The notes under the pieces were generated by a model. That model searched no databases. It saw only the letters and a list, made by a program, of their open reading frames with translations, and was not told the DNA's origin. Below are positions 4,537-60,009 of a DNA stretch of 64,000 bases, in pieces. Position numbers and translations under genes: made by a program. The DNA comes from Bdellovibrionales bacterium (GTDB lineage: Bacteria > Bdellovibrionota > Bdellovibrionia > Bdellovibrionales > UBA1609). Numbering within the stretch: position 1 is the stretch's first letter; the number at the start of each line of letters is the position of its first letter. The stretch is from assembly GCA_965242635.1 (NCBI GenBank), contig OZ251471.1, forward strand, positions 1,736,737-1,800,736, in the 5' to 3' direction.

Positions 4537-6518
4537 TTAATCTATCGAAAGAACAAAGAAAAATTGTGGAACAAGACTTAAATAAATCCATTCAGGTTCT
4601 GGCTTCTGCCGGCACCGGGAAGACTCGTGTTTTAACTGAAAGGGTCCGGTATATCCTGAATCATACCAAAAAATCAGGAATTATAGCTCTAACTTTTACC
4701 AATAAATCAGCAGAAGAGATGAAAAAGCGACTGGAAACATCAGATTCAGCAGTGGATCGTTGCTGGATAGCCACCATTCACTCTGTAGCCCAGAGGATTG
4801 TGGAACAGTATGGGCATACTATTGGCCTCCCTTCCGATTTGAATATATATGATCGGGATCAGGATCGAAAAACTATTCTTTTACAATCAATTGCTAACAA
4901 TGGCTTTTCTGTGGAAAATTTAATGCAAAATAACAGTAGCTTTGATAACAAAAAAAACAGAACCCAAACAATACAAAAGTATATGGAGCAATTTTCCCAA
5001 ATAAAAAGGAATTTAATGACACATACAGAAATTAAAAAAAAATATGGAGATGGTTTTTTGCATATTTTTAAAAATTATCATGAAGAGTTAAAAAACAGTG
5101 GAGGTATTGATTTTGATGATATCTTAGTATATGCTCATAGAATCCTAATAGAGCAACCTAACTGTGCAAGAATATATGGCATAAAATACCGGTATATTTT
5201 TGTAGATGAAGCCCAAGATTTAAATAAAGCACAATATGAGCTGATTAAAGCTTTCAGTGGCTATAAAATTCAAATTGCGATGATGGCAGGAGATCCAGAT
5301 CAAATGATCTACGGCTTTAACGGTTCTTCAAAAAAGTATTTATGCCAAACTTTTATCCAAGATTTTGATCCTCTTACATTTAAGTTGAAAAAAAATTATA
5401 GAAGCTCAAAAACAGTTGTTCGCCTGGCTAATAGGTTAAAACCTGCTTCTCAATTGGAATCTGATTTTGCTCTTGATGGCAAGTATAAGATTCAAGATTT
5501 CGATAATGAAAGGTTAGAAGCAGAGTGGATTGTAAAAGAAATCAAATCCATTTTATTAAATACCAAGCATTCTGATATTGAAGGCCCTGTTTCATTAAAT
5601 AATATCGTGGTTATAGCACGTACTCGCTTTGTATTCCAGGAATTGGAAAAGGTATTAAAGAAAGCTAAAATAAATTATTCTTTTAAAAAATCCAAACCTT
5701 TATTGGAACCTGCATCTCATATTGGTAAAATTCTGGATTTATCTATTCGTCTTAAACTTAATCCAAGAGACTGGATAAGTGGTAAAAAATTATATGAGTT
5801 GTTGAAGATAAATTTCCCAGATATATGGCCCAATGAATCTGGTTTGGTTATCTTAATTAAGCACCTTGGTGCAACCTCTATTCCATTTGTAGATTTGATA
5901 AAAACCACTTTAAAAAGCATAGAAAGTCTTGATGTTGAAAACCCAAATATGTTAAAATTATTTAACAAGATAAATGACAATATCCAAAAAGAAGTCAATC
6001 TACTGAAAAATAATCATTTTGCAACAAAAAGTACAACAGGAAAAAAATGTGAATCATTATTACAAGAATTGGAAAATTTTAAAAAAGAGTTGGATGAGTT
6101 TAAAAAATACTGGAGGCTTTTCAGGCTAAAAAATTCAGAAGCTTCTTTGATGGCCTTTAAAAATTCTCTGGCTTTGGGAGAGCTTATTTCAATAGACCCA
6201 GTATCCATAAATGAACCAGTGTTAACATTAAGCACAGTGCATACCATGAAAGGATTGGAAAAGGACATTGTGTTTTTAATGGGTATGTGTGAAGGAGTTT
6301 TTCCTGACTATAGAGCCAGAAGTCCACATGAAAAAGAAGAGGAAAAAAATAATGCTTTTGTGGCTGTAACCCGTAGCAGGCGATGGATTTATATCACTTA
6401 TCCCAAAAATCGTAAAATGCCTTGGGGGGATATAAAACAGCAACAAGAATCCCGGTTTGTAACTGCCATGAGAAATAGCACCTCATTGAATAATATAGAA
6501 TTTAGAAAATCTGTTTAA
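4533..6518 (+). CDS. gajB: UvrD/PcrA-like superfamily-1 helicase, GajB-like
   Basis: SF1 motifs ASAGTGKTRVL (I), IFVDEAQDLN (II), GDPDQMIYGFNGS (III), NYRSS (IV), TVHTMKGLEKDIVFL (V) and FVAVTRSRRWIYITY (VI). Translationally coupled to the OLD nuclease. Confidence 0.8.
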   Translation: MINLSKEQRKIVEQDLNKSIQVLASAGTGKTRVLTERVRYILNHTKKSGIIALTFTNKSAEEMKKRLETSDSAVDRCWIATIHSVAQRIVEQYGHTIGLPSDLNIYDRDQDRKTILLQSIANNGFSVENLMQNNSSFDNKKNRTQTIQKYMEQFSQIKRNLMTHTEIKKKYGDGFLHIFKNYHEELKNSGGIDFDDILVYAHRILIEQPNCARIYGIKYRYIFVDEAQDLNKAQYELIKAFSGYKIQIAMMAGDPDQMIYGFNGSSKKYLCQTFIQDFDPLTFKLKKNYRSSKTVVRLANRLKPASQLESDFALDGKYKIQDFDNERLEAEWIVKEIKSILLNTKHSDIEGPVSLNNIVVIARTRFVFQELEKVLKKAKINYSFKKSKPLLEPASHIGKILDLSIRLKLNPRDWISGKKLYELLKINFPDIWPNESGLVILIKHLGATSIPFVDLIKTTLKSIESLDVENPNMLKLFNKINDNIQKEVNLLKNNHFATKSTTGKKCESLLQELENFKKELDEFKKYWRLFRLKNSEASLMAFKNSLALGELISIDPVSINEPVLTLSTVHTMKGLEKDIVFLMGMCEGVFPDYRARSPHEKEEEKNNAFVAVTRSRRWIYITYPKNRKMPWGDIKQQQESRFVTAMRNSTSLNNIEFRKSV

Positions 6519-6664: not shown

Positions 6665-6728
6665 GCACTGTGCCATCACTTTGGCCCGGATTTTGCGGGG
6701 GAGGGTAGACAGAGGCAGGATTTTCTCA
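6665..6728 (+). repeat. ~65-nt motif gcactgtgccatcactttggcccggattttgc-ggggg...aggcagga, shared with 40314-40378
   Basis: The first ~33 nt are identical in both copies and the following part is similar. The second copy lies directly 5' of the Rpn-family gene. Confidence 0.7.
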
Positions 6729-6791
6729 AGAAGAGATCAAAAAGCTGAAAAGAAAAATGGTTCCTTCTAAAAAACACAAAAGCGAAAAAAC

Positions 6792-6972
6792 GGCCCAAAA
6801 ACCCCCCCCAAGTCAAACAAAAATAGAGCCTTCCACACCTCCATCGGGGAAAAAATCTGCCAAAAGGGCTTGACCAGGGCCCAAAAACCCCCCCAAGTCA
6901 AACAAAAATAGAGCCTTCCACACCTCCATCAGGGAAAAATTTGTCGGAAGGGCTTGACCAGGCCCTAAAACC
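6792..6972. repeat. Tandem direct repeat, ~86-bp unit, about 2.2 copies
   Basis: ggcccaaaaaccccccc(c)aagtcaaacaaaaatagagccttccacacctccatc.gggaaaaa..tg....gggcttgaccag occurs twice, then a third partial start (ggccctaaaacc). Confidence 0.85.
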
Positions 6973-7456: not shown

Positions 7457-7933
7457 ATGTCCCGCCGAAGTCGCAAAATTCACAGACAGGAAATAAAAGC
7501 AGACCCCGTGTATGCCGACACCCTGGTCTCATGCTTTATCAACAAAATGATGTGGGATGGCAAAAAAGAGCTGGCCCGAAACATTGTCTACAAGGCTTTA
7601 AAAAACTTAAGCAAAAAATACCCCAAGGAAAGTGCGGTTTCCATATTCAAAAAAGCGGTGGATAACTGTAAACCCAGCATGGAGGTGCGTTCCCGCCGGG
7701 TGGGGGGTTCCACCTATCAGGTGCCTGTGGATGTGCGTGCCCGCCGACAATCCACTTTGGCCATTCGCTGGCTTATTGTCCACTCCCGTGCACGAAAAGA
7801 AAAAACCATGGCGGAGAGGCTTTCGGCAGAGCTGATGGAGGCCTATAACAACAAAGGGGCTTCCATCAGGAAAAAAGAGGATGTGCACCGTATGGCAGAG
7901 TCCAACCGGGCCTTCTCTCACTATAACTGGTGA
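7457..7933 (+). CDS. rpsG: 30S ribosomal protein S7
   Basis: MSRRSRKIHRQEIKADPVY...GSTYQVPVDV...AFSHYNW. SD aaggag before the ATG at 7457. The track start at 7415 overlaps rpsL and was rejected. Confidence 0.95.
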   Translation: MSRRSRKIHRQEIKADPVYADTLVSCFINKMMWDGKKELARNIVYKALKNLSKKYPKESAVSIFKKAVDNCKPSMEVRSRRVGGSTYQVPVDVRARRQSTLAIRWLIVHSRARKEKTMAERLSAELMEAYNNKGASIRKKEDVHRMAESNRAFSHYNW

Positions 7934-7953: not shown

Positions 7954-10035
7954 TTGCCCACATTAAATATCCAAAACATCGACGACCTTCAGCACACCCG
8001 CAACATTGGGATTATCGCCCATATTGATGCTGGCAAGACCACCCTGACAGAGCGGATTCTCTTTTACACAGGCCGTAGCCATAAAATGGGCGAAGTGCAT
8101 GAGGGCAACACCATCATGGACTGGATGGAGGAAGAGCAAAAAAGAGGCATCACCATCACCTCTGCCAGCACCACCTGTTTTTGGCAAAACCACCGAATCA
8201 ACATTATAGATACTCCGGGCCATGTGGATTTCACTGTGGAGGTGGAACGTTCCCTAAGGGTTTTGGATGGGGCTGTTGTGGTGTTTGATGGGGTGAGCGG
8301 GGTGGAACCACAAAGTGAAACCGTCTGGAGACAGGCGGACAAACACCATGTGCCCCGCATAGGCTTTATCAACAAAATGGACCGTGCAGGGGCGGATTTT
8401 TTCATGAGTGCCCGGTCCATCAAAGAAAAACTTAACGCCTCCCCCTTATGCCTTCAGTTGCCCCTGGGGACAGAAGAGCACTTTCAGGGGGTGATCGATC
8501 TGATTGAAGAAAAGGCCCTGATATGGGACAGGGACACAAAGGGTGAAAAATACACTGTCCGGCCCCTGCCGGAAGAGTATAGGGATCAGGCCCAAAAAAT
8601 GCGGGAGAAGATTCTGGAGCAATCGGCTAATGCGGACGACAATATTATGCGTAAATACCTGAACGAAGAACCCATATCCCCTCTGGAAATAAAACAGGCC
8701 TTGAGAAAAGCCACCCTGGGACTTCAAATCGTCCCTCTGTTTTGTGGCTCTGCCTTTAAAAACAAAGGGGTTCAGCCTTTGCTCTCTGCTGTGCTGGATT
8801 ACCTGCCAGGGCCTTTGGATCTGCCGCCCGTCAAGGCAGAAGGCCTGAAAAAAGGAAGACAGGTGCTCCTTCCCACCGGGTTTGATCGCCCTGTCTCCGC
8901 CCTGGCCTTTAAGCTTATGGAAGACCCCTTTGCCGGGCACCTGACTTATATTCGTGTCTATTCCGGTGTGTTGAAAACCGGTGCTCAGGTGTTAAACAGC
9001 AGAATAAACAAAAAAGAAAGGATCCAAAAACTGCTGAAAATCCACTCCAAACAGAGAGAGGAAAGTGCTGTCTTAAAGGCAGGGGACATAGGGGCGATTC
9101 TGGGGCTTAAATGGACCGCCACAGGGGACACCCTCTGCTCTCCCACACACCCCGTGGCCCTGGAACCCATTGCCTTTCCTGAGCCGGTGATCTCCAAAGT
9201 GGTGGAGGCCCGCTCCTCCGTGGACCAGAAAAAAATGATGAGTGCTCTGAAGATTTTGCAAAAAGAGGACCCGTCCTGCTCTGTGTCTGTGAGTCAGGAG
9301 ACAGGGCAGACCCTTCTTATGGGCATGGGGGAGCTTCACTTGGAGGTGTTGCTTCAAAGGCTTGTTCAGGACCACAAAGTCAAGGTGAACACCGGCCCCC
9401 CACAGGTGTCCTACAGGGAAACTGTCACAACAGCAGGGGAGGGAAAGGCTGTTTTCCACCTGGAAAACAGTGGGGAAAAACAATTTGCGGAGTTGAGTTT
9501 GAAAGTGGAACCACAAGGGGCTTTAAGCAAGTTGGTGTTTGAAAATAAAGTGGCACCAGCTTTAAAGACGGAGTTTTTGATGGCCATCCAACAGGCGATC
9601 CAGGATTCTGCGGGTGTGGGGGCCCTTATGGGCTGGCCTCTTCTTGGGGTCAGGGTGATTTTACTGAAAGCAGGGTATCGGGGCGAAAATGAAGAGGGGA
9701 TAAAATCGGCTTTTAAGGCTGTTTCGGCCAAGGCTTTTCGAAAGGCTCTGAGCACAGCAAAAAGCCGGCTTTTGGAGCCGGTATTTGATATGGAGATTCT
9801 GACACCGGAGGAGTTTATGGGGGATGTGATAAGTGACCTGAACACCCGCCGGGCCAAAGTGGAAGGGGTGCATTTGCAAAAGAACCTTCAGGTGATAAAG
9901 GCACAGGTTCCTCTGGCCAGCCTCTTTGGCTATGCCACAGAGCTTCGCTCTGTCAGCCAGGGCAGGGCCTCCTTTTCCATGCAGATGCGGGAATACCAAA
10001 AAGTGCCGGAGAAGATAGCTCAAAAACTACAATAA
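7954..10035 (+). CDS. fusA: Elongation factor G
   Basis: [17 protein letters not shown] and NKMD GTPase motifs plus EF-G domains III-V. Apparent TTG start with no upstream in-frame ATG. Confidence 0.9.
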
Positions 10036-10048
10036 GGGCTAAAAAATT

Positions 10049-10789
10049 ATGCAAAAAGGGAAATGGGTGGGATGGGTGTTGTTGGCTGGGTTGTTTGCGG
10101 GCCTTATGCACTATGGCCTGAACCACTGGCTTGTTCTCAAGGATATTCAGCTGGAGCTGATGAAAAAAGATTCGGCATGGGAGGGCTCCGCAGAGGAGGT
10201 GCAGGGGCTGTTGAAACTCAAGCTCGAAAAGTTTATCGGAAAAAAAATGTGGCAGGTGTCTCTGAAGGATCTTAAGGAGGTGGCCCAATCTGAACCACGG
10301 GTGGGGGAAGTTCAGGTTTTAAGGCGACTCCCTGACCGCTTTTTCATTCAGATACAGGCACGAAAACCCCTCTTGGTGTGGCTGAACACCAAAGAAAACA
10401 GCATCCACCCTCTTTCACAGGACGGGCAGATTTTGCCGGCCCTTCCCCTCCATCGCATTCCCGATCTGCCCATTTTAAAAGGCTCTCTGTTTGCAGAAGA
10501 CAAAAATATCAGGAAACAGGCCATTCATTTTATTCAGCTTTTGCCGGAACAGGGGGAGTTCAGCCGGCGGGCCATATCAGAGATCAAGTATTCTGCTGAG
10601 GAAAAAAGCCTGATTTTTATTTTGTCTGCCAACGGCAAGCCGGTTAAAATGGGTTTCAAGGCTTTGCCTGTTCAAATTAAAAGGGTGGCCAGTGTTTTAA
10701 GGTATTTGGATCAAAAAAATATCCCCTACCATGTTATAGACGCCCGATTCTCCCAGAAAATTGTGGTGAGCACCGACCAATCCATATAA
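10049..10789 (+). CDS. ftsQ: FtsQ/DivIB-like cell-division protein (N-terminal TM plus POTRA)
   Basis: Single TM helix WVGWVLLAGLFAGLMHYGL followed by a POTRA-like stretch, EPRVGEVQVLRRLPDRFFIQIQARKPLLVW...LSQDGQILP. Confidence 0.55.
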   Translation: MQKGKWVGWVLLAGLFAGLMHYGLNHWLVLKDIQLELMKKDSAWEGSAEEVQGLLKLKLEKFIGKKMWQVSLKDLKEVAQSEPRVGEVQVLRRLPDRFFIQIQARKPLLVWLNTKENSIHPLSQDGQILPALPLHRIPDLPILKGSLFAEDKNIRKQAIHFIQLLPEQGEFSRRAISEIKYSAEEKSLIFILSANGKPVKMGFKALPVQIKRVASVLRYLDQKNIPYHVIDARFSQKIVVSTDQSI

Positions 10790-10794
10790 TGATC

Positions 10795-10880
10795 CTGTTT
10801 GAAAATTCACGGCTCAAATTTCCCCTGCAGGGCGAAAAAACCTCACCAGCGGCACCTTTTTCAAAACCAGTTTGGTTTAC
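10795..10880 (+). repeat. MITE-like element, short form (ttgtttgaaaat ... ggcacctttttcaaaaccagtttggttta)
   Basis: Near-identical ends to copies at 23509-23595, 57769-57891 and 58031-58153. Reverse-oriented copies lie at 37272-37368 and 16749-16850. Confidence 0.8.
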
Positions 10881-11419: not shown

Positions 11420-11425
11420 AACCAG

Positions 11426-11575
11426 CAACTGGCAATGTGGGTGGCGGATTTAACAGGGCCTTATAAGCACAGTGCCTGCAAGGTGAAGTAAAAAACGGTT
11501 TAGCAACAACTGGCAATGTGGGTGGCGGATTTAACAGGGCCTTATAAGCACAGTGCCTGCAAGGTGAAGTAAAAA
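11426..11575 (+). repeat. Perfect 69-nt direct duplication (11426-11494 and 11507-11575) between nuoB and nuoCD
   Basis: caactggcaatgtgggtggcggatttaacagggccttataagcacagtgcctgcaaggtgaagtaaaaa occurs twice, 81 nt apart. The second copy ends 1 nt before the nuoCD ATG. Confidence 0.9.
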
Positions 11576-13346: not shown

Positions 13347-14243
13347 AAAAATCTTTGGACACAAGTGCTTAAGAAGTTCTTTTTTTTGGCTCTGCCCTTA
13401 CGTGGTCCAAGTTATGACCTCATTAATATCTCCGGAGGAGTTAACACCCACTATCAGTGACTGTGACTGTTGATGGAAGGTTATTACAGGCCGTAATCTG
13501 GGAACAATCAGCGGCACATTCTGGAAGTGTGAGGCTGGTAAGACTGCTCAATCCATCAAAAACATTGTGATGAAACAGGCCTTTGTTTGAAAGTGGTTAG
13601 ATGTTTTCTGCCATAAAGGAAGAACTCAGAGGCAATAACCAGGATCGCCAGTAACTGTTAAGTTATCACCAGAGCGAGTCAGGGTGCAAGAGGTCCCTCC
13701 ACCGGTGCAACTGTAAGCAGAGCCACCGAGATAGGTGGTTATATCACTATCAATAAACAGGCCACTTTGGGGGCAATAAAGAAAAACGCTATTACTATTT
13801 ACTTCTGATAACTGAATCGTAGTCAGTGTTTGACCGGTATTGGGGAGGGATTTTAACAGAGCTTTAAGATTGGCTGGGGAAATACAGGTTTCATCCAAAT
13901 CCAGGTTTGTTAAAGCCGTTAAATCAGACAAAAGCTGATTGGCTGAAGCAATAGTGCTTAGGGAATGTGTTACCAAATCAAGCCTTGTGATCCCGGAAAG
14001 CCCTTTAAAATCATTGGCTGTTACAGGACTACTGGATTTACCAAGATTACCTGCACAAGGATTAGTTTCCTGTGGAATTTCGAGTGTGTCGGTGAGGTTA
14101 GACAAGTCCCCATTGGTTACAGTGGAGCAGGTTCGAGCAGTGGCACGACCACTGTTGACTTTCGCCAAAATAGCCGTTTGCACAAGAGTATTTCTATCGC
14201 AAAAACCTGTTACTTGATCAGAGGGGGATAAAGTGCCACCATC

Positions 14244-14297
14244 GCCATTGCCATTGCCATTGCCATTGCCATTGCCATTGCCATCACCATTGCCATT
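14244..14297. repeat. Hexanucleotide microsatellite (gccatt)n encoding a (GN)n linker
   Basis: About 9 near-perfect gccatt units. Translated on the minus strand as NGNGDGNGNGNGNGNGNGDG. Confidence 0.85.
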
Positions 14298-14713
14298 ACT
14301 GCTACCGCCATCGCTGTTGCCACTACTGGACGAGGATGAAGACCACCTCACATCATACTCCTCCTCGCAAAAATCCTCAAAACCCGAAAGAGTCCACTCC
14401 TCTCCGGCAGACTTAAGTTTTCTTCGGTAATCCTCTTCAAACAAATCCCCTTCAGACAACAATCTGGACAAATACGACCGGTAGTTCAACACAAACGCCT
14501 TGCAATAGGCCCCCAAATTCCTCCTGCCGGGGCACTGCAAAATGTCCCCTCTCTCTTCACACACTTCCTCCACATACTCATCCACCCATGCATAAGCTGG
14601 CTCATTTTCCTCCCTTGCCACTATGTGAAAAAAGCTCCTGTCATCTTCCAGCTCCTCTGTCAGAATATCCTTTAGCTTGTTCCCCAAACCCGCACGGGAA
14701 AAAGCTTGTTTTA

Positions 14714-15879
14714 TTGATAAGTTCATAAATATTCCGATATTACATAGCATACTTTAAAGAAGGCTTTAAAAAGAAACTCCTAATAGTATCAGGCCTTCTT
14801 TGTAAAGACTTTAAATAATAAGTAACCTTTTCCTTCAACTCCTCTTTCGTCTTTATAAATAACTTCCCAATACAATGATACTTTAAATGATTCCAAACCA
14901 ACTCATCCGGATTCAAATCAGGTGCATACGGCGGAAGATAAAATAACTTCAACAAACCACCTGTCGAATCCACAAACTCACGCACCTTCTTTGACCTATG
15001 CACCGGATGACCATCCACAATCAAATAAACCGGCCCACTCCCATCTGAAATCAATCGCTTTAAAAATGAAATAAACACCCTCCCTGTAACACCACCTCTC
15101 ACAGTCATAAACCTCATACCACCTTTAGCAGAAATAGCTGAAATCATATTCAAACTAAAACGTTTGCCTGTGCCCCTCACCTCCGGAGTCTTCCCTTTAG
15201 GTGCCCAAGTCGTCCCACTATGATAATCTGATCGCACACCAGACTCATCACCAAAATAAATCTGTGCACCCTCCTTATTAGCCAACCTCTGTATATTAGG
15301 ATACTCCTCCTTCAACCAACCCTTAACAAGAGATGGATTCCTCTCATAAGCCCTGTGTAATGGCTTCTGACAAGTCAAACCCAAACGGCCCATTAAACGA
15401 CCCACAGATGTAATACTGAGCTTTATCCCATACTTCAACCGGATGGCTTCCTGTATCCGCCTCCGATTCCACAAAGCAAATGGAAAACTTAATTGCTGAG
15501 GGTTCTTATTCACCATCTTATAAATCCACTTCAAATGTCGCCCCTGAACAATCGGAGGACGACCAGAAGCTTTTCTCCTCTTTAAATTATCCCAACCCCC
15601 CTCACCATATCTAACAGCCCAATTATACACCGTGTCCGGATTAACACCTAAGAAATCAGCTACCTTCCTCGGATTTTCGCCAGAGAAAAGAGCCTGCATC
15701 CCACGAATCCGTAGAGCCTCCTGTGACTTCCGATCTAATTTCCGTGCATCATTTTTTCTCATAAACTCACCTTATCATACACACAAAAATAAAACAACAC
15801 TTTTTTTCACATAAAACAAAAAAAATCATTTTTCACAACTTTAGACCTAATATTATCGGAATACTTATGGCCTTTTTAA
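14714..15879 (-). mobile_element. Complete IS630-family insertion sequence (~1166 bp) with TA target-site duplication
   Basis: Imperfect ~27-bp terminal inverted repeats (ttgataagttcataaatattccgatat versus ttaaaaaggccataagtattccgataa; 21 of 27 match). TA flanks both ends (14712-13 and 15880-81). One DDE transposase ORF. Confidence 0.9.
14740..15762 (-). CDS. IS630-family DDE transposase
   Basis: N-terminal HTH (VADFLGVNPDTVYNW), DDE region ...IYFGDESGV..., LIVDGHPVHRS, YLPPYAPDLNPDELVWNHLK. Confidence 0.92.
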   Translation of the reverse strand: MRKNDARKLDRKSQEALRIRGMQALFSGENPRKVADFLGVNPDTVYNWAVRYGEGGWDNLKRRKASGRPPIVQGRHLKWIYKMVNKNPQQLSFPFALWNRRRIQEAIRLKYGIKLSITSVGRLMGRLGLTCQKPLHRAYERNPSLVKGWLKEEYPNIQRLANKEGAQIYFGDESGVRSDYHSGTTWAPKGKTPEVRGTGKRFSLNMISAISAKGGMRFMTVRGGVTGRVFISFLKRLISDGSGPVYLIVDGHPVHRSKKVREFVDSTGGLLKLFYLPPYAPDLNPDELVWNHLKYHCIGKLFIKTKEELKEKVTYYLKSLQRRPDTIRSFFLKPSLKYAM

Positions 15880-16379
15880 TAAGATGTTAAACTCATCGTC
15901 TTCTTCCTCCAAAATCCGGGCCAACTGTTTGTTCTCTGTTACTTCAATCAAAAACTTTTTGGCCTCATCACGGGAGAGTTTCCTTATGGTGCGGGCAAAT
16001 TCTGTATCGTCTATATCCAACAGGCACTCCAAAATATCCAGGTCCAGATCATCTGCACTGTCTTCTTCAAGCATTTCCTCAAACAGTTTTTCAAAACCAA
16101 AAACGGTTTTTTGTGGCAGTTCAAGACAGGCTTTTTCATGGCTGTGGGTGGAAAAGAGATCATCACATATTTCCTGGCATTTTTTGTCTTTTTGGCAGGG
16201 GTTACCGGTATTGGCCTGACACTTCTCCTCCTGTTTGTCCGGGTCACTGGTTTTGGGGCTTGTTCTTTCTATGGGAGGTGGAGGCGGTTCCCCCGAACAG
16301 TTGACAAGCACATAAGTCGCCAACAAAAATAAAACCACATACAAAAATGACAATCTGAATTGATAAGCTGGCTGACTGC

Positions 16380-16538
16380 CTGTCCAAAAAGCCGTGCCAT
16401 GAGGGTCCAAGCACGCAAAGCGTGTTGCTATTGACCTGCTTTTTTCTTCGATCTTATCTACAATCAAAGAACACAGGCGGGGCGAAAAATCCCTCCCGCG
16501 AGGCGGGCGTCCCGAAATGGTGCGGACTTTTTGGACAG
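16380..16538. repeat. Palindrome-flanked ~160-nt element (arms ctgtccaaaaag / ctttttggacag)
   Basis: Perfect 12-bp inverted arms enclose a core with a cccgcgaggcggg hairpin. It occupies the same position, just 5' of the lipoprotein start, as the unrelated element at 19552-19772. Confidence 0.65.
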
Positions 16539-16748
16539 GTAGTGATTCTGTCAGAAAATTACTGAACAGGTACAGAGCAGGGCCTGTAGCTCTGCAAAGC
16601 CAGCACCTATGACGCGGTGCGGAGGGAGGGGGGGTGAGATTCTTTTCGTAGCTGTTTTTTTTCATCGTTTTGTGGGTAAGTTAACCGATTCGTCATGGCA
16701 AAGACTCAGGGTATTTTTTGATCTTTCAGAACAAAAAGTCAAGCCTAA

Positions 16749-18127: not shown

Positions 18128-19537
18128 TCAGGGAGGACAAGCCGGAGTCCCTCCCTGTCCTGTCCAAGCCTCTAATTGGGATCCACGAGCTGAACGATCG
18201 TATCGCTTGGAAGTCCTGACTACACCGTGAGAACATGTCCAGTCTGCCCTATTTGGGCTTACATCCAAAGCCCTGAGGATATTATCGTTAAATGTGCTTA
18301 TTGGATGGTGGAAACCACTGTTTCTAAAGAAAATAACCGTATCATTGCCAACAAGACTTGTTATAGATCCGGGAGTGGAATGACAAGACAGATATTTCTC
18401 CAATGCCGTAAGAGCATCGGCAAGATTTCTACTGCCTATAATTTCATCATAAAGGGGCCCATTATTAGGGCTGTCAGCCTGAAAATCAACTCTCAAATCT
18501 GTTTGACAGCTTGTATACTCTGGTGCACAAGTGCCGGGTAGCGAACCGGGGCAACCACCAGTGCCACCTGTGGTAGTGCCGGTGGTGGTTGTAGTGCCAG
18601 TGCTGGTTGTAGTGCCAGTGCTGGTCGTGGTGCCTGGGCCTGATGTACTGGCACCCGATGTGCCGGCTGAGCCACCGCTGGAAGAGGATGAAGTCCACTG
18701 CACACCATACTCCTTTTTGCAAAATTTCTTAAAATCAGAAAGAGTCCACTTATAATCCCCGGACCTGAGCCGACCCCGGTAATCCTCTTCAAATAAATCT
18801 CCTTCAGACAACAATCTGGACAAATACGACCGGTAATTCTCCACAAACGCCTTGCAATAGGCCCCCAAATTCCTTCCCTTTGGGCACTGTAAAATGTCCC
18901 CTCTCTCTTCACACACTTCCTCCACATACTCATCCACCCATGCATAAGCCGGCTCATTTTCCTCTCTCGCCACTATGTGAAAAAAGCTTCTGTCATCCTT
19001 TAGCTCCTCTGTCAGAATATCCTTTAGCTTGTTCCCCAAACCCGCACGGGAAAAAATCTGTTTCAAAATATTAAACTCATCGTCTTCCTCCTCCAAAATC
19101 CGGGCCAATTGCTCGTTCTCTGTTATTTCGATCAAAAACTTTTTGGCCTCATCGCGGGAAAGTTTCCGGACAGTGCGGGCAAATTCTGTATCGTCTATAT
19201 CCAACAGGCACTCCAAAATATCCAGGTCCAGATCATCTGCACTGTCTTCTTCAAGCATTTCCTCAAACAGTTTTTCAAAACCAAAAACAGTTTTTTGTGG
19301 CAGTTCAAGACAGGCTTTTTCATGGCTGTGGGTGGAAAAAAGCTCATCACATATTTCCTGGCATTTTTTGTCTTTTTGGCAGGGGTTACCCTGATTGGCC
19401 TGACACTTCTCCTCCTGTTTTTCCGGGTCACTGGTTTTGGTGGTCGTTCTTTCTATGGGAGGTGGGGGCGGTTCCCCCGAACAGTTGACAAGCATGTATG
19501 TCGCCAAAAAAAACAAAAATACATACAAAAATGACAA
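18128..19537 (-). CDS. Lipoprotein with a conserved N-terminal module and a divergent C-terminal domain (intact paralogue)
   Basis: A TTG at 19537 gives (M)SFLYVFLFFLATYMLVNC|SGEPPPPP (lipobox). The track ORF extends upstream through repeat DNA; that extension was rejected. A Ser/Thr/Gly-rich linker precedes the C-terminal domain. Confidence 0.7.
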   Translation of the reverse strand: MSFLYVFLFFLATYMLVNCSGEPPPPPIERTTTKTSDPEKQEEKCQANQGNPCQKDKKCQEICDELFSTHSHEKACLELPQKTVFGFEKLFEEMLEEDSADDLDLDILECLLDIDDTEFARTVRKLSRDEAKKFLIEITENEQLARILEEEDDEFNILKQIFSRAGLGNKLKDILTEELKDDRSFFHIVAREENEPAYAWVDEYVEEVCEERGDILQCPKGRNLGAYCKAFVENYRSYLSRLLSEGDLFEEDYRGRLRSGDYKWTLSDFKKFCKKEYGVQWTSSSSSGGSAGTSGASTSGPGTTTSTGTTTSTGTTTTTGTTTGGTGGCPGSLPGTCAPEYTSCQTDLRVDFQADSPNNGPLYDEIIGSRNLADALTALEKYLSCHSTPGSITSLVGNDTVIFFRNSGFHHPISTFNDNILRALDVSPNRADWTCSHGVVRTSKRYDRSARGSQLEAWTGQGGTPACPP

Positions 19538-19551
19538 CTTTTGTGTCCATC

Positions 19552-19772
19552 CCCACCTCCTCCTTGTGGGGGTGCGGAGTGAGTTCGCCTTTGGCGATAT
19601 TTTGCGTCCTCTGCTGAGCCGATTTCTTGTGTTGAGGAACAAGTGTCGTGCAAAAAAGCTGATTTTTACGTTTACATAAGACGCATTTTTAAATAAAAAG
19701 CTTCTGCCTTTAAACAAAATGTCGCCAAACGGCGATGTTTGAACGCCCGTGCCACCACAAGGAGGAGGTGGG
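19552..19772. repeat. Palindrome-flanked conserved ~185-nt element, copy 1
   Basis: Perfect 18-bp arms cccacctcctccttgtgg / ccacaaggaggaggtggg enclose a core shared with 39948-40130. Confidence 0.85.
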
Positions 19773-19889
19773 CCGGTCCGTAAGGACTTGGTTGTGAACC
19801 TGGCACCAAGCCACCACCTATGACGCGGTGCGGAGGGGAGGGGGGTGAGATTTTTTTCATAGCCGTATTTTAAAACCAAATATTTCATT

Positions 19890-21050
19890 TTACAATAAAC
19901 CTTTTTTTAAGATACTGCACCAGTGGGCAAAGGGCCATATTTCAATACCGTCTTCGGTTTTCCGGGGTCTGTCCCCCATATACACCATGATCCGCCTTTT
20001 GATATGAGGCATATCCGCTATGGCTTTAAGCCCTCTCAAATCATCCGAAAACACCTGTGCCCGTGATTTAACTTCTATCGCTATCAGCTCTTTGGTTCCG
20101 CGTTGTAAAAGAAAGTCCACTTCTGTTTTTTTTGCCCCCGAAGGAGACCAATAATACATCTCATCAAAAAGAGAATGATAATCCCTGTTGGCTCTGAGAA
20201 TTTGAGCCACCAAGCCCTCAAACAAGGCCCCCTTTTCTTCATTGGTCACGGGACCGGAATGGCCTTTGAGGGTCCGGGCCAAACCAGGATCAATAAAATA
20301 AAACTTGGGATGTTTTTGCTCCCTCAATCGAATTTTACTGGAATACGCTGGCAGAAAAAAGCCCAACAAACTGTCCTCCAAAATGGAAAAAAAGCCCCGG
20401 ACCGTGTCTCTGGACACCTCACTTTCCCGTGCAATACCGCTCATATTGACATATTGCCCATGATAGAGGCCAGCTACTCGTAAAAAACGGGCAAAGCCAG
20501 GGAGATTTCTCACAAGGGCTTCCTCTTTTACCTCCTCCTTTAAATACAACTGAGTGTAGGCCTTTAAAGCAAAATCGGGTGCTTTGGAAGATAAAATAAG
20601 AGGCAAAAGGCCCACCCTCAAGGCTTTGTCCAAATCAAAATCTTTGCCCAGCTCCTCTGGAATAAAAGGGTGCAAAGTAAGCCAGCCCGCCCTTCCGGCC
20701 AGTAAATTGACCCCCCTGACCCTTATTTTACGGGCACTGCTTCCCGTCAGGATAAAGCGTAAGGAAAAGCTTTCCATAAGCCTATGCACTTCGTTCAACA
20801 ACGAAGGGAGTCTTTGAATCTCATCCACAATAACCAAAGAGCCTCTTTTTAGAGTGCGTAACTCATTGTAAAACAAAGTGATATTGGTCAAATAGCTTTG
20901 GTAGAGGGAACCGTCCAAAAGGTCTATATAAACAGCTTTTGGAAATACTTTTTTTAAAAGAGAGGTCTTTCCGCTCCCCCTGACACCAAATAAAAACACA
21001 TTGTGCGGAGGAAAAGAAAGTGCTCTTTTATAGATTTTTTTGTAAGACAT
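19890..21050 (-). CDS. COG1373-type ATPase (AAA plus DUF4143-like), paralogue of 58486-59628
   Basis: Walker A GVRGSGKTS, Walker B VIVDEIQRLPSLLNEVHRL, and a C-terminal TEVDFLL...AIEVK nuclease-like motif. Confidence 0.8.
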   Translation of the reverse strand: MSYKKIYKRALSFPPHNVFLFGVRGSGKTSLLKKVFPKAVYIDLLDGSLYQSYLTNITLFYNELRTLKRGSLVIVDEIQRLPSLLNEVHRLMESFSLRFILTGSSARKIRVRGVNLLAGRAGWLTLHPFIPEELGKDFDLDKALRVGLLPLILSSKAPDFALKAYTQLYLKEEVKEEALVRNLPGFARFLRVAGLYHGQYVNMSGIARESEVSRDTVRGFFSILEDSLLGFFLPAYSSKIRLREQKHPKFYFIDPGLARTLKGHSGPVTNEEKGALFEGLVAQILRANRDYHSLFDEMYYWSPSGAKKTEVDFLLQRGTKELIAIEVKSRAQVFSDDLRGLKAIADMPHIKRRIMVYMGDRPRKTEDGIEIWPFAHWCSILKKGLL

Positions 21051-22278: not shown

Positions 22279-23616
22279 TTAATACTGAAGTTCCAGCCGT
22301 AACCACAGGGTGCGTTCACGATCCGCGAACAAAGTGTTCCCTCCCACCCTGAAGTCACGATATTCAGCTGGCTCATTCATCACATTTTGCAAAACCAAGC
22401 CCATTCGGGTGGCTTTGTTCATGTCGTAAAAAGAATAAATATCAAGATGCTCCACAGATTTGCCCGATTCCACAAGACTCCCGCCGCTCCTTTGAGTGTA
22501 AACAGTTCCGAAAACCAGGTCGGGTGTGAGGGCGTAACCCAGTCGTAAGGACCCCAAGTGTCTGACAAATTGAGCGTCATTAAGCCATGGATCGTTGTTG
22601 TAAGTGTAAATGTATTGAGCACCTCCCTCAAGGGCCTCCAAAAGAAAGCCCACATTCACTTCCACACCCTGCACACTAAAGGACGAATCTTTTAAGGAAT
22701 CCACCAACTGAACAGGGAGAGTATTTTGATTCCTGCTCTCTGTTATACCGGTTTCAAAAGCAGACACATTCAGAAAAATATCATCGTCTTTTTCAATATG
22801 CAGGCCCATTTCATAAGTCAGGTATTCCTCCTTTTGCCTGTTCAGATGAATATCCTCTTCATCCAGGCGAACCACCTTGAGGGGCCGTTTTATCCCAAGA
22901 GAGTCCCACGAAGAGAGAGCAGAAGCAGAACTTATCCCTCCGGTTAAGAACACATTATGAAGGCGGATTTGAGCAATACGATAAGAGGCAGAACCACTCC
23001 ATTCCCAAGCCTGGTTCCTTTTTTGTTCCAGAGAATCATCCCGGTTCATCTGAATTCTGTAAGAAAAAGGGGCTGAATTTTTTGTCAGATCAATCCCGCT
23101 CGCTTTTATTCTCTCTTTTTCATCGGAAAAATATCCTCTGTCAAAGGGGCCAGTGGGCTTGTTTTGCTTTTCCAAATCAATAGTAAGTATGTAACCATCC
23201 ACTTCCCGGTCTGAAGAGTAAGCCCCAAAAAGCCTGACAGACAAAAGCCGACGCTTATACTCCACTGAATTAAGCCGATCCGGCTTTTCATTGGACGGGG
23301 CCCCAAGAGATTTAAAAAACAAAGACGGATGTTTTAACAGATCAGACAAAGTGCAGGAAGGGCAGGCACTCTGATCCCCCTCTTTCTTAAAAGTAATGGA
23401 AAGAACTGGCAGGCTCTGAACCTTTTTTTCCTCTTCAATAACACCCTGAGCGAAGGATTCTCCAGCTGAAAAACCCAAACACAACAGGAAAAAGACTTTT
23501 ATACCGATCTTGTTTGAAAATGCATGTTTCAAATTTCCCAGACAGGAGGGAAAAACCTCACAAGCGGCACCTTTTTCAAAACCAGTTTGGTTTACAGCAA
23601 ACAACTGCCTTTTCAT
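22279..23616 (-). CDS. Outer-membrane beta-barrel-like protein; the N-terminus carries an in-frame repeat-element insertion
   Basis: ATG at 23616 with a strong SD (aaaggaggg). Signal-like stretch KVFFLLCLGFSAGESFAQG. Alternating beta-strand pattern and a C-terminal ...LWLRLELQY. Confidence 0.65.
   Translation of the reverse strand: MKRQLFAVNQTGFEKGAACEVFPSCLGNLKHAFSNKIGIKVFFLLCLGFSAGESFAQGVIEEEKKVQSLPVLSITFKKEGDQSACPSCTLSDLLKHPSLFFKSLGAPSNEKPDRLNSVEYKRRLLSVRLFGAYSSDREVDGYILTIDLEKQNKPTGPFDRGYFSDEKERIKASGIDLTKNSAPFSYRIQMNRDDSLEQKRNQAWEWSGSASYRIAQIRLHNVFLTGGISSASALSSWDSLGIKRPLKVVRLDEEDIHLNRQKEEYLTYEMGLHIEKDDDIFLNVSAFETGITESRNQNTLPVQLVDSLKDSSFSVQGVEVNVGFLLEALEGGAQYIYTYNNDPWLNDAQFVRHLGSLRLGYALTPDLVFGTVYTQRSGGSLVESGKSVEHLDIYSFYDMNKATRMGLVLQNVMNEPAEYRDFRVGGNTLFADRERTLWLRLELQY
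23509..23595 (+). repeat. MITE-like element, short form, lying inside the 5' coding region of 22279-23616
   Basis: cttgtttgaaaatgcatgtttcaaatttccc...ggcacctttttcaaaaccagtttggtttac. Nearly the same as 10795-10880. Confidence 0.8.
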
Positions 23617-25084: not shown

Positions 25085-25201
25085 ATCTGCTTATATCCTC
25101 TTTTTGAAGAGGCTATTTTAATTGGCCTTGAAAAACCCTTATTTATACTGATCTTGTTTGAAAATGCATGTAAAAACAGGCCTTTTTCAGGGCTGACTGT
25201 T

Positions 25202-32787: not shown

Positions 32788-32821
32788 TCCCCGGGCCTGA
32801 ATCAAGACCACCTTGCCCTCA

Positions 32822-33246
32822 CCGTCATTCCCGCGAAAGCGGGAATCCAGAAAATCTACCTGACCACTGAATAGCCTTAATCAGTCATTCCCTTTTCTGC
32901 CGTCATTCCCGCGAAAAACTGTCATTCCCGCGAAAGCGGGAACCCACTCCTCTTTCCAAAAACTGTCATTCAATAAAGGCCATTTTGCCCTTTCCGCTTG
33001 TGCTATTGTCCCCTTTCGAACTGTCATTCCTTTCCAAAAACTGTCATTCCCGCGAAAGCGGGAATCCAGAAAATCTGCCTGATCACTGAATAGCCTTAAT
33101 CAATCATTCCCTTTTCTGCCGTCATTCCCTTTTCTGCCGTCATTCCCTTTTCTGCCGTCATTCCCTTTTCTGCCGTCATTCCCGCGAAAAACTGTCATTC
33201 CCGCGAAAGCGGGAATCCAGACCTTTCCCCCTGAAAGGGGGGGTCA
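32822..33246. repeat. Mosaic array of dRS3/NIME-like hairpin repeats (attcccgcgaaagcgggaat) plus an 18-bp tandem repeat
   Basis: Four full gtcattcccgcgaaagcggga(a/t)cca hairpin units (about 32824, 32921, 33045 and 33195). Many gtcattccc half-sites. An ~85-bp segment is duplicated (32824-32910 versus 33045-33130). tcattcccttttctgccg occurs 4 times in tandem (33104-33175). Terminal hairpin ccccctgaaaggggg. Confidence 0.85.
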
Positions 33247-33276
33247 AAGACAAACTTGCGACTTGGATTCTTGTAT

Positions 33277-33305
33277 TTGACAGCACTCTACTTTGCGGTT
33301 ATAGT
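33277..33305 (+). promoter_or_regulatory. Near-consensus sigma70 promoter (TTGACA, 17 nt, TATAGT) that would give a leaderless or very short-leader SIR2 mRNA
   Basis: ttgacagcactctactttgcggttatagt. The -10 element ends 10 nt before the ATG at 33316 and there is no SD between them. Confidence 0.55.
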
Positions 33306-33315
33306 GTTACACCTT

Positions 33316-36300
33316 ATGATTTACATCCCAAACGGCCCTGATATACCTGAAAAAGTTGAACAAGATCTCAGCAATGACAACTTGGTATTTTTTTGTGGAG
33401 CTGGCATTTCTTTTCAAAATGGCTTGCCCTTGTTCAAGGGCTTGGTGGAGCGAGTTTGCCAAAAGCTTGGTATCGATAGAGAGAAAGAGCCTCTTTTGGA
33501 AAAGGCTCATAAAAAAGAAAACTATGCCAGAATGCTGGATTTGATCGAAGGCAATCAATCTTTCTCAGTCACCAAAGAGAAGTTAAGAAAAAAAGTTATT
33601 GAAATTTTAAATCAATACAAAGGCAAGCCTGATATTCATAAAGCCCTTTTGGATCTGTCTGCCTCGCCGGGTAACAAGGGCCATCGATTGGTCACCACTA
33701 ATTTTGACAGGTTGTTTTTTAAAGCTGGTCTTAATAATGATCATGCTTTTTTTGATTCAGTCCCCAAATTAGTAGCCCTACCCAGAAAAGACACATGGCA
33801 ACATCTGACCTTCTTGCATGGTGTGATTGATGAAGAACATGATCCAGAAGGCAAGCATCTAATTCTCACTGGAAGCGATGTTGGCTTGGCTTATTTGCAT
33901 GATAATTGGGCCAGTCGTTTTATTATTCAGCTTTTTCAGGATTGGACAGTGCTGTTCATCGGATGTAGTGTAAACGATCCTGTAATGCAATATCTTTTTT
34001 TAGCTATTCATGAAAATCAAAAAAGAAGGCAAAATAGCAAAAAACAGACTGAAGCACATATCAATCACACAACAGATGAAAGTACAATTTATGCTTTTGT
34101 TGGATATAAAGATGGACAAAAAGAGTCAGCTAAAGATGAGTGGAGAGGTTTGGGTGTGAAACCTATCCTCTATAAAATTACAGGCAACAAAGACAATGAG
34201 AATCATTCACTGTTATACAATACTATCAAAAAGTGGGCTTGTTCAAAGCAAATAGGTTTACCCGGCAAAAAAGTCCAACTTGAAGAGCAATTAAGATTAC
34301 TCTATAAAGAAAAAGAGCGGGCTACTAAATCAAAAAGAACAAGATTATCTGACAGAAAAGTCCAACTTAAAGAGCAATTAAGATCACCTTATAAAAAAGA
34401 AACAGATAAAGAAAAAGCAAATAATGTTATTTCCTCTTTAAACATAGATGATAAATTGGCAAGATATTTTTCACAAATAGATTTTGCACCCGATCCAACA
34501 GAGAATAACAAATCATCTCCCAACAAACCAGTGGACATCAGCTGGTTAAGTGCTTTTGATAATTCTGAAAAGAGAGCAAACAAAATAAAATTTGCCCCTG
34601 CAAAAGAGAAAGAGGCTAAAAGCAGTACACTGGAAAAGTTAACAAAAAAAACCTCCCAAACAAATCCACCTCTATGGGAACCTTTATCACCATTGGAGGG
34701 GCATATAGCCCTTTGGCTCTGTAACCACTTGGATAAAAAAGAATTAGTCCACTGGGTCATAGATAAAGGTTGTATATTGCATCCAGGGTTTAAAAGCATG
34801 ATTCGATACACAATAGATAAAAGACCAATTGAAGGTATTCAAAAAACCGTTTTGAAAAAGAATATACAGCTTTTTTGGGAAACTGTTATTGACAATAATT
34901 ATTTAAAAAGTAGGTATTACTATGATACTGTATATGGTATAATAGAGGATCTGAATCGACAATACTCTCCGTTTAAAGCCAAGATTTTATTGGAATTATT
35001 GGAGCCTTACATCCATTTTCATACAGATTGGCTTTCAGATTCAGAATCGGATTTTACAAAAGAAGTTCGTAAACCTGAAATAAAAATCAATATAGACCAT
35101 TATCCCAGCATTCAGCTTAAAAATGAAAAAGTGCTTTCACATCATGCAGAAGATTTTTCGGATTTACTGAAAAAAGCAATGGAACTGGCCGAAAAGATTG
35201 AAATTATTAAAAATGGAGAAGATCATTTCTATATTATCAGGCCTTCTATTGAAGAGCAAAATATAACATATCATACTTGGATTTATCTCATTGATTTGAC
35301 AAGAGACAGTTTTGATATGGCTGTAAAGAAAGATAGACAGTTGGCTAATCTTTTGTTACAAAAATGGCAATATTATTCTTACTCTCTTTTTCATCGTCTT
35401 ATTCTTTATGCTGTGACCAAATACCCTGAATTGGATCAAAAAATAGCTCTTGATCTTTTAAGTAATGAACAACACCATGTTTTATGGTCCATATCCTGTC
35501 AAAATGAAGTCTTTAAATACTTAAAATCTGAAAAGTATTCTCACACTCAACAAAAAGCATTGTTGGATTTAATCATGAAAGGGCCACCCAACAGTTTATT
35601 CATGGATAATATTGATGATAAAATTATTACAGAATACAAAGAAAAAGATATCTATAAGAGGTTGAGTTGCTTAAAAGTGTCTGGCATATCCTTTCCTCAA
35701 GAAGTGGAAAAATATTATCATGAAATTCAATCCAAGTATTCCCTTCAAAACAAGGAAATACATGATTTTCCTTATTTCCATACTGGGTGGAGACCAAGAG
35801 ATATGAGACAGCAAAGATATAATCAATTAAGCTCTGAACAAATATACGATGATCTCAAAAAACCAATCCACCCTTTGGAACAAGAAGAAAAAAAGCAGGC
35901 TTTTCAATATTTAACTGAAGACCAGGTAGATAAAGCTTTTGAAGTGCTCTTAAAATTTTCAGATTCAGAGCATATTAGTGCTTCATATTGGGGAGCTTTT
36001 TGTAATGGTCTTTCCTCAGCAACAGATCAAAACAAAGCAAATGAATATTTTATAAAATCCATCAAAAAAATTGAAGGTTTTAATGATGAATTTATCACTG
36101 AATGTCTGTGGCCTTTGGTAGAATCTTTTGGATACAAAGGAGGACTGTTATACTATAAAGTAGACAAAGATTTTTTCAAAAGATGGTGGAAAAAATTATG
36201 GGATTTAAGTGTTAAAAAAGAACAAAAGCACCTGTCCAAAGAATCTTCCAATGTGAACATGAGGGCACATAACTCACTGTTGGGCAAATTAACAAATTCC

Positions 36301-57771: not shown

Positions 57772-57891
57772 GTTTGAAAATTTACAGCTCAAGTTTCTCT
57801 TATCAGAAAAGAAAAACTCACGAGCGGCACCTTTTTCAAAAGGCAGACCCCTCGGGGCAGGTTCTGCCTGCCCCGTGCCAGTTTGGTTTAA
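57769..57891 (+). repeat. MITE-like element, long form with a GC-rich hairpin insert
   Basis: catgtttgaaaat...ggcacctttttcaaaa[ggcagacccctcggggcaggttctgcctgccccgtgc]cagtttggtttaa. Confidence 0.85.
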
Positions 57892-59812: not shown

Positions 59813-59920
59813 ACTGATTTCCAGTTTTATAGGCTAATTCCTGAATGGTCACTTTGGAGTGATTCGCTATAAAACAGAGGATTGTCTCCCCAGTTTTCTG
59901 TATTATTTCATACCTCTTTA
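59813..59920 (-). pseudogene. Orphan ~110-bp duplicate of the 3' part of the 60010-61440 gene, lacking the 12-bp tandem repeats
   Basis: actgatttccagttttataggctaattcctgaatggtcactttggagtgattcgctataaaacagaggattgtctcc-cagttttctgtattatttcatacctcttt matches 60127-60310 minus six repeat units. Confidence 0.75.
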
Positions 59921-60009
59921 AGGTATCTTGCAAAAACCAGTTATAAACACTCCCAATAAGCAAGTTAGAGGTTCATTTTTCAGCAAAGATATGTGATCTG
60001 AGCCTTTAT

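Follow-up and report, generated by a model that had tools for sequence, protein, structure and literature searches.

A stretch of 64,000 nucleotides from the genome, about 2 Mb in size, of an uncultivated Bdellovibrionales bacterium (contig OZ251471.1, positions 1,736,737 to 1,800,736; hereafter, the window) carries two copies of a palindromic element of about 220 nt. In each copy, a conserved core is enclosed by inverted-repeat arms that are perfectly complementary within the copy and differ between the copies. What kind of element keeps its arms complementary while their sequence changes? A preliminary description of this DNA had offered two answers: a mobile core that inserts at the apex of pre-existing palindromes, or a structured RNA whose closing helix covaries completely. 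[quoted passage not shown] Small palindromic repeats are common in many bacterial genomes, and the present element is ordinary in kind, with some interesting details.

Copy 1 occupies positions 19552-19772 of the window (221 nt) and consists of an outer arm, a 4-nt mismatch, the core, a second 4-nt mismatch and the other outer arm. Copy 2, as delimited by inverted-repeat pairing and folding, occupies 39929-40149. The core, of about 177 nt, runs from GCGGAGTGAG to GAACGCCCGT (19574-19750, plus strand, in copy 1; 39952-40126 in copy 2). Its two ends are conserved: at the left end the copies agree over 40 nt without a difference, and over 14 more after one mismatch, and at the right end the last 63 nt are identical (in copy 1, the blocks 19574-19613 and 19688-19750, plus strand). 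The centre of about 75-90 nt is variable, with about 75% identity between the copies and two 1-nt indels. When patterns made from the end blocks were searched for with up to three mismatches, they occurred exactly twice in the window, against 0 occurrences expected by chance.

The whole unit forms one long imperfect hairpin. Its fold energies range from -88 to -102 kcal/mol across copies and strands, and both strands give z-scores between -7.4 and -8.1; copy 1 folds at -102 kcal/mol on the plus strand and at -95 on the minus strand (z about -8). The terminal inverted repeat spans about 45-50 bp and is made of the perfect outer stretch, the 4-nt mismatch and an inner stretch, which at each end contains a 5-bp GC mini-hairpin followed by a T-run. 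The core ends pair with one another (TCGCC-TTTGGCGAyATTTTG). In copy 1, the left mini-hairpin, TCGCC-TTT-GGCGA followed by TATTTTG (19585-19597, plus strand), lies within a 24-nt module, and the right one, TCGCC-GTTT-GGCGA followed by CATTTTGTTT (19722-19735, minus strand), is terminator-like and faces inward. The mini-hairpins of copy 2 lie at 39963-39975 and 40098-40111.

Much of the preliminary description was borne out by direct reading, alignment and pattern scans. Both copies were present, their shared core was confirmed with end blocks 100% identical, a perfect inverted repeat was found around each core (18 bp in copy 1, 16 bp in copy 2), and imperfect inverted core ends, each with a mini-hairpin, were seen in both copies. 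Its view of a repeated, non-autonomous, hairpin-shaped element with imperfect inverted ends of its own was upheld. Its statement that the arm sequences are unrelated between the copies held only in part. The left arm of copy 1, CCCACCTCCTCCTTGTGG (19552-19569), and the right arm, CCACAAGGAGGAGGTGGG (19755-19772), are perfect complements over 18 bp; those of copy 2 (39932-39947 and 40131-40146) are perfect over 16 bp, or 19 bp if one mismatch is allowed. The lack of relationship between the copies is confined to the outer ends of the arms, 7 bp in copy 1 (CCCACCT/AGGTGGG) and 6-9 bp in copy 2 (CAAGGC/GCCTTG). For the inner 10-11 bp the statement failed. BLASTN homology between the copies reaches into the arms (19559-19765 against 39938-40140, 88% over 207 nt) and includes the inner 11 nt of the left arm of copy 1 (19559-19569). 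The inner arms, CCTCCTTGTG and CCTCTATGTG, are identical at 8 of 10 positions, and shuffles with anchored alignment gave p ~0.02 for the left and ~0.007 for the right arm. Both of the inner-arm differences between the copies are mirrored in the partner arm. To judge from this homology, each arm is mostly element, not target, at least in its inner part.

Further members of the same kind came from a related genome. Copy 1 lies inside a gene of a lipoprotein family, and a scan with an alignment of this family led to two genomes in GTDB, both metagenome-assembled genomes of Bdellovibrionales bacteria. One locus, L003, is in OZ241921.1; two further loci of the OZ241921.1 genome, L017 and L018, were reached through Rpn-type paralogs. 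The 24-nt left-end module of the window element (GTGAGTTCGCCTTTGGCGATATTT), which holds the left mini-hairpin, is 100% identical at L003 9806-9829. There it heads an element (L003a, 9585-9856) with a different interior and with closing inverted repeats that match perfectly over 22 bp; the start codon of the lipoprotein homologue follows about 95 nt downstream. This sister family has at least eight full or partial copies in about 50 kb, six full-length copies and several partial ones, and includes tandem partial modules (left ends at L018 13200-13440, and duplicated right ends). Its outer arms are homologous across copies, with the consensus CCGCCCGCCTTTTAAAGGGCTGGAAG at the left and its complement at the right, and the right arm moves with the inner right-end module, even in the tandem duplicated right ends of L018; the sister arms therefore belong to the element itself. 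As parts of a longer conserved repeat, they speak against the earlier proposal that the arms are a pre-existing target.

The sister copies differ from one another in the same way as the two window copies. L003a has four differences from the consensus in its arms, all of them mirrored, which gives the perfect 22-bp repeat. The copy L018_8794 has a perfect 24-bp repeat and its near-identical neighbour L018_6459 has one unmirrored change, while the arms of L017_8612 and L018_13438 are decayed. RNAalifold on six sequences found 9 pairs changed on both sides, and for the innermost hairpin there are two variants, each with a perfect stem of its own (CACGCC.GCGTCT and CGCAAAGCGTCT). The outer tip of copy 1, CCCACCT, is also the outermost tip of some sister copies. 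Arms that are perfect within a copy and different between copies are, by these alignments, general in the lineage, and they are homologous repeat ends evolving in concert.

In the sequences searched, the window-type core was not seen beyond its two copies. A gapped pattern of its ends, TTCGCCTTTGGCGAN{105,135}TCGCCAAACGGCGA, had no match in 185,579 species genomes or in JGI metagenomes. A looser pattern, TGAGTTCGCCNNNNGCGATATTT, had no match in viral sequences and 12 matches in metagenomes, which were in unrelated and mostly coding contexts and were taken as chance. A protein-coding element was ruled out, as the open frame differs between the copies and the intergenic sister copies have stops in all frames. 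In their right halves, the open frame of copy 1 is not that of copy 2, and no conserved peptide is encoded. A comparison of all stop-free translations of the element with 5.8 billion proteins gave no match at E values up to 10.

We propose that the complementarity of the arms would be kept by copying one arm from the other at the level of DNA rather than by covariation of an RNA. A likely route would be template switching or mismatch correction in a repeat that takes on its hairpin form while it is replicated. Template switching is known to homogenise and expand the arms of inverted repeats (PMC8794818, PMC8604942, PMC13100816) and to yield mirrored multi-nucleotide changes in them (PMC7202029, PMC8794818, PMC8604942, PMC13100816). 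Because it homogenises inverted repeats and can lengthen them, arms that are perfect within a copy and different between copies would be expected. It could account for the arm data without an RNA, although we infer this step from the pattern of changes. The absence of G-U pairs from the three perfect outer helices (18, 16 and 22 bp; 0 in 56 bp in all) likewise favours pairing of DNA rather than of RNA. The unrelated outermost 6-7 bp might be a target in the form of a short palindrome, or else recent outward extensions. An enzyme that spreads the family in trans would recognise the conserved 24-nt end module. Copy 1 is tolerated as a stop-free, in-frame insert of 90 codons, and copy 2 would be harmless between divergent genes.

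Several results weigh against a family of foldback repeats of this kind. No target-site duplication flanks copy 1, copy 2 or L003a. Pfam scans of the main open reading frames (ORFs) of the window (50 queries) found no recombinase and no transposase of the Y1 type or of the type linked to REP (repetitive extragenic palindromic) sequences (RAYT). The only transposase in the window belongs to an IS630-family insertion (14712-15880), and the ends of this insertion, ATAAGTATTCCGATA, are unrelated to the core ends, so that a MITE derived from it was rejected. An autonomous parent, a transposase-encoding element with the ends of the present one, was looked for and was present neither in the window nor in the related loci that were fetched. 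No pair of filled and empty sites was found for the window family, whose mobility is presumptive; the window-type core is known from two copies only. The contrast between identical end blocks and a centre at about 75% points to constraint or conversion, not to simple recent transposition. The tips of terminal repeats are normally the most conserved part of such repeats, but here the arm tips are the least conserved part. Last, in two sister copies the fold of one strand is more stable than that of the other by about 20 kcal/mol, which leaves room for a role as RNA.

The main rival explanation is that a mobile core of about 177 nt inserts into the loop of pre-existing hairpin repeats of the REP type, much as IS1397, ISKpn1 and ISPpu9 insert into REP sequences. 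Insertion sequences (ISs) that target REP are documented (PMC1525189, PMC12288879). The apices reconstructed for the two copies (slash, position of the core) are alike, CTTGTGG-GGGT/GCCA-CCACAAG for copy 1 and CTATGTG-AGTG/CCCC-CACATAG for copy 2 (in common, ..TGTGg-gGTG/CC-CACA..), and both loops would contain GTGCC. Partial homology of the inner arms, with mirrored changes, would also be expected if the arms came from a single hairpin family and had diverged. Nesting of this sort is even visible next door, at 16375-16543, where about 98 nt stand in place of an 8-nt loop. For copies 1 and 2, however, an empty hairpin with either arm was found neither in the window nor in L001-L004, L017 and L018 (~125 kb); a search of the window and these six related loci with up to 4 errors returned chance-level matches only. 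The sister right arm travels with the inner right-end module, a perfect 36-bp palindrome is unlikely to have pre-existed in a region coding for a signal peptide, and other perfect short-loop palindromes are very few in the window. Insertion at the apex of pre-existing palindromes was therefore not shown for either copy, given the lack of empty palindromes and the homology of the inner arms, and we regard it as unlikely.

A structured non-coding RNA, with a closing helix kept by compensatory evolution and, at copy 1, an action in cis on the 5′ end of the lipoprotein mRNA or antisense to it, seems to us less likely again. The very low folding z-scores (about -8), the mirrored changes in the helices of both families and the combination of constrained end blocks with a free centre would all suit an RNA. 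For L003a and L017_8612, moreover, the GAGTTCGCC strand has the better fold, by 21-22 kcal/mol, and forms 14-15 G-U pairs where the other strand forms 1-4, but this asymmetry is absent from the remaining copies. When G-U pairs were compared with A-C mismatches as a test of strand, the ratio by RNAalifold was 10 to 3 for the outer stem of the sister family, where one copy contributed most of the excess, and 4 to 6 for the inner stems, and a crude alignment of half against half gave 55 to 34; such counts give weak and inconsistent support for RNA. None of the Rfam 15 covariance models matched at its gathering score. There were sub-threshold, hairpin-like matches only, the best being a plant microRNA precursor (23.8 bits against a threshold of 195 bits). 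No promoter-like site was predicted inside either window unit. Gradual covariation does not fit wholly different arm tips beside end blocks that are 100% identical, and the perfect outer helices lack G-U pairs. The copies also lie in unrelated contexts, within an ORF, upstream of genes and downstream of genes, and copy 1 lies within an ORF that is kept open. A structured RNA with a fully covarying closing helix was poorly supported by these results. Least probable of all, in our view, is an invertible phase-variable segment in which the perfect repeats serve as the crossover sites of a recombinase that flips the core beside surface-protein genes. Perfect repeats of 16-22 bp do bracket 170-230 bp near the 5′ end of a lipoprotein gene family with slippage-prone tracts, and recurrent recombination would hold the arms identical. 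Yet Pfam scans of the window found no invertase or integrase, no promoter was predicted within the segment, copy 1 lies inside an ORF that is open in one orientation only, and the sister copies beside Rpn-type genes in L018 are all in one orientation. Known invertons show the opposite of tips that differ while the core is conserved.

The gene that carries copy 1 adds to the picture of a tolerated foldback repeat. A 586-aa ORF of the lipoprotein family (18128-19888, minus strand; lipobox LVNC/SG) reads through copy 1 in frame; an ATPase gene (19890-21050) lies beside it. The family is small, with 21 homologues, every one of them from a genome of about 2 Mb. Its usual N-terminus consists of MKKNLPPPPALRHKW, a linker of 3-10 residues and LAFLLSAYFMINC, whereas the window protein has ...NLTPLPSAPRHRWWL, 90 residues and then LSFLYVFLFFLATYMLVNC/SG. 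The 90 extra codons (19538-19807, 270 nt) contain copy 1 and, by the N-terminal alignment, fall between the n-region (PRHRWWL) and the h-region (LSFLYVFLFFL) of the signal peptide. The insert has 0 stops in the frame of the gene and 2-6 in each of the other five frames. No comparable bracketed segment was found in the orthologous upstream regions of L001 and L002.

A tandem lipoprotein paralog with the same conserved flanks (15865-16665, minus strand) has an insert of 81 codons (16354-16596, 243 nt) that is unrelated to copy 1 and likewise palindromic. It contains a different palindromic element (16375-16543) with 17-nt arms at 16375-16391 and 16527-16543. This insert, too, is stop-free in the frame of the gene alone, with 2-6 stops in the other five. 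Both inserts, of 270 and 243 nt, are multiples of 3 and lie at the same position between n-region and h-region. By our own estimate, with a chance of 1/3 per insert for a multiple of 3 and of about 5% for the lack of a stop, two in-frame stop-free inserts would arise by chance with a joint probability of roughly 10^-3 to 10^-4. This low probability argues that the insert-bearing genes have been kept translatable. The IS630-family insertion mentioned above (DDE_3 transposase 14740-15762, minus strand) splits this paralogous lipoprotein gene into 13626-14750 and 15865-16665.

The element in the paralog also gave a direct view of nesting. Its outer hairpin (GTCCAAA..CCGTGCC.TGAGGGT.CAAG / TCCCGAAA.GGTGCGGAC..TTTGGAC) is found as a repeat of about 70 nt with an 8-nt loop at L003 15068-15141 and L017 16055-16128, with partial copies in L018, and the window element has about 98 nt in place of the 8-nt loop. 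Apex nesting thus occurs in this lineage, at 16375-16543, though it was not shown for copies 1 and 2. Part of the loop filling, cgcgggagggatttttcgcc, recurs in an insert of about 115 nt that interrupts a PDDEXK_2 paralog in L018; the likeness to the filling covers the initial 30 nt of the insert. Comparison of the filled site (L018 1853-1968) with an empty one (L018 10286-10300), the one such pair seen in the lineage, showed that this insert replaces 10 nt (GGCTGTATCC) without a target duplication.

The 586-aa lipoprotein gene looks phase-variable from its sequence. A promoter-like site at 19895-19867 (minus strand) puts the start of its transcript at about ATG 19860, and the transcript looks leaderless, as in L001 and L002. 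In this family the -10 box lies 5-6 nt before the ATG, and homopolymer tracts directly follow the start codon. In these regions (window 19830-19895, L001 9990-10030, L002 10000-10045, L003 9950-9985), relatives have A8 with C11-C14, L003 has C9, and the window has interrupted tracts, A7/C6. The A7 tract of the window is one A shorter than that of the family; the leaderless ATG 19860 is therefore out of frame, and a 62-codon ORF stops inside the element. A slip of one base would restore a frame open through the element, which is consistent with phase variation; the arrangement looks like slipped-strand phase variation of a surface lipoprotein. The lipoprotein mRNA would also meet the inward-facing hairpin and T-run at 19735-19722, and transcription may be attenuated there.

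Copy 2 lies in the spacer between two divergent genes, one for GmrSD_N (39125-39622, minus strand) and one for a nuclease of the Rpn family with PDDEXK_2 ("putative transposase"; 40401-41387, plus strand). It is upstream of a strong promoter-like site of the former, and the latter begins 255 nt downstream of it. A sister-family element, L003b, is in the same place in the related genome, upstream of a gene of the Rpn/PDDEXK_2 type. In L018 (5368-12774), an array of Rpn/PDDEXK_2-like paralogs with a C-terminal (EGRQ)n repeat and a helix-turn-helix tail has a sister-family element 15-35 nt past the stop codon of each paralog, three copies in one orientation. Two of the three informative loci had been fetched via Rpn-type genes, so the adjacency is biased and serves as a lead only. 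As copy 2, L003b and the three L018 copies adjoin Rpn-type genes, the hairpin modules might be natural DNA substrates of these nucleases; spread, loop nesting and insertion into genes would then come from nuclease-promoted illegitimate recombination without target duplication, and the arms would be rewritten from local sequence. We give this idea little credence, but if true, it would provide the first cis-element and mobility mechanism for this very large and little-explained protein family. As a separate observation, the GmrSD-type restriction gene beside copy 2 (37478-39622) is present as two ORFs, GmrSD_N (39125-39622) and GmrSD_C with DUF5655 (37478-39061), and is probably frameshifted or otherwise interrupted.

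The window is chromosomal and contains rpsL, rpsG, fusA, nuoB, nuoCD, icd, ychF, rny, tolB and hisS, with interspersed defence and mobile genes. Other repeats were seen in it. Arrays of a palindromic unit of about 27 nt, GTCATTCCCGCGAAAGCGGGAATCCAG, inside direct repeats of 219-273 bp lie at 32821-33224, just upstream of a gene for a 1338-aa SIR2-like protein (33256-37272), with copies also in L001; we presume a resemblance of this unit to the dRS3/NIME (Neisseria intergenic mosaic element) repeats of Neisseria. A repeat of about 96 nt, from TATAnnGATCnTGTTTGAAAAT... to CTCACnAGCGGCACCTTTTTCAAAA, is found in the window at 10785-10880, 23500-23595 and 57760-57855, in shorter form at 25142 and 58020, and in L002 at 6705-6800, 7829-7924 and 18814-18915, with 76-86% conservation in that second genome. 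Its place at the 5′ ends of several genes would suit a promoter or leader that they share, or a small RNA. About 8 tandem units of a 12-nt repeat, TTTTCTCCCTAG, (60195-60290; region 59819-60314) lie within a 313-bp direct duplication (59819-59899, 60132-60212) with a 20-nt inverted repeat (60179-60198, 60358-60377), inside or beside a Schlafen/AlbA_2 gene (60010-61440). Between nuoB and a fused nuoCD, two 72-nt copies, 99% identical and 81 nt apart, lie at 11423-11575.

A low-GC (33-39%) pair of genes at 2746-6518 encodes an AAA_15/AAA_21 ATPase with an OLD-type TOPRIM domain and then a UvrD-type helicase; its architecture looks like that of a Gabija (GajA/GajB) defence system. Genes unusual for a bacterium (43671-45368, 51237-52205 and 47524-48924) encode a topoisomerase VI B subunit, a eukaryote-type S-adenosylmethionine decarboxylase (PF01536) and an ankyrin-repeat protein. 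Members of the lipoprotein family in relatives bear leucine-rich repeat domains. This gene content and these domains hint at a lifestyle associated with a eukaryotic host.

Two different palindromic elements occupy one codon position in tandem lipoprotein paralogs with the frame open in both. Copy 1 and the insert of the paralog therefore make a clean case of in-frame selfish DNA outside Rickettsia, and a natural experiment on the amount of added sequence that the signal peptide of a lipoprotein can bear. The arms, perfect within a copy and different between copies in two families and two genomes, would form a compact natural case of concerted evolution, probably via template switching. That elements were found repeatedly beside Rpn/PDDEXK_2 genes offers a lead on the biology of that family, albeit with a bias.

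Comparison with known systems sets several of them apart from the present element. A REP sequence with its RAYT is an imperfect palindrome of 20-40 nt with a conserved head, a high copy number and a Y1 RAYT gene. The unit here is about 220 nt (3-6 times a REP) and has no GTAG head, and no Y1_Tnp match was found in the Pfam scans of window ORFs. The hairpin repeats of the lineage do resemble REPs, bacterial interspersed mosaic elements (BIMEs) and REP doublets (REPINs) in forming mosaics of modules, one of which holds DNA at its apex (16375-16543 compared with L003 15068-15141), and in often lying just past stop codons, as in L018 (PMC1525189, PMC3116915, PMC3333891). In contrast to the case of the REP-targeting ISs IS1397 and ISPpu9, no empty hairpin was found for copies 1 and 2 in the window or in the six related loci, whereas one was found for 16375-16543. 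The palindrome-associated elements (PATEs) derived from IS200/IS605 share with the window element a small subterminal hairpin near each end and the lack of target duplication, but their ends are not inverted repeats of each other, while those of the present element pair with one another over about 50 bp; the window also yielded no Y1 transposase. An invertible promoter would have a recombinase nearby, a promoter inside the unit and both orientations, and neither a recombinase in the window nor a promoter-like site inside the unit was found. Quasipalindrome template-switch mutagenesis perfects and lengthens imperfect inverted repeats and leaves mirrored multi-nucleotide changes like those seen here (PMC7202029, PMC8794818, PMC13100816); it is a mutational process, not a family of elements, and its action here is suggested by the pattern.

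Correia repeats (Correia repeat enclosed elements, CREEs), enterobacterial repetitive intergenic consensus (ERIC) sequences and the QMITE elements of Coxiella are small and non-coding, have terminal inverted repeats and a stable stem-loop, lie next to genes, and can be co-transcribed with them or fused to them (PMC10969869). In comparison, the present element has far longer inverted repeats, of about 45-50 bp, with variable tips, no parent IS with the same ends was found in the window or in the loci fetched, and tandem partial modules occur. Correia elements have a TA target-site duplication, and the window element has none. The element thus belongs to none of the following: REP/RAYT sequences, IS200/IS605 derivatives, Correia elements, known RNA families and typical invertible promoters. 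With MITEs in general it shares the small, non-coding unit (about 221 nt, with 2 copies in the window and at least 8 in the sister family) and the terminal inverted repeats, its ends pairing over about 45-50 bp, though not a flanking target-site duplication, which is likewise absent from the L018 1853-1968 pair. RPEs are found as in-frame, stop-free inserts within protein-coding genes (PMC10969869). Like copy 1, they are palindromic repeats of about 100-230 bp in genes, which stay open and whose proteins acquire an inserted peptide. The likeness to RPEs is one of description, in a different phylum and with no apparent sequence relationship. Only 1 of the 2 window copies is intragenic, there is no conserved peptide, none of the 5.8 billion proteins shares the translated peptides, and the insert is located in a signal peptide, not a folded enzyme. 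Although target duplication is absent, the element acts like a MITE or an RPE in its size, its non-coding sequence, its presence in several copies, its inverted repeats and its in-frame insertion.

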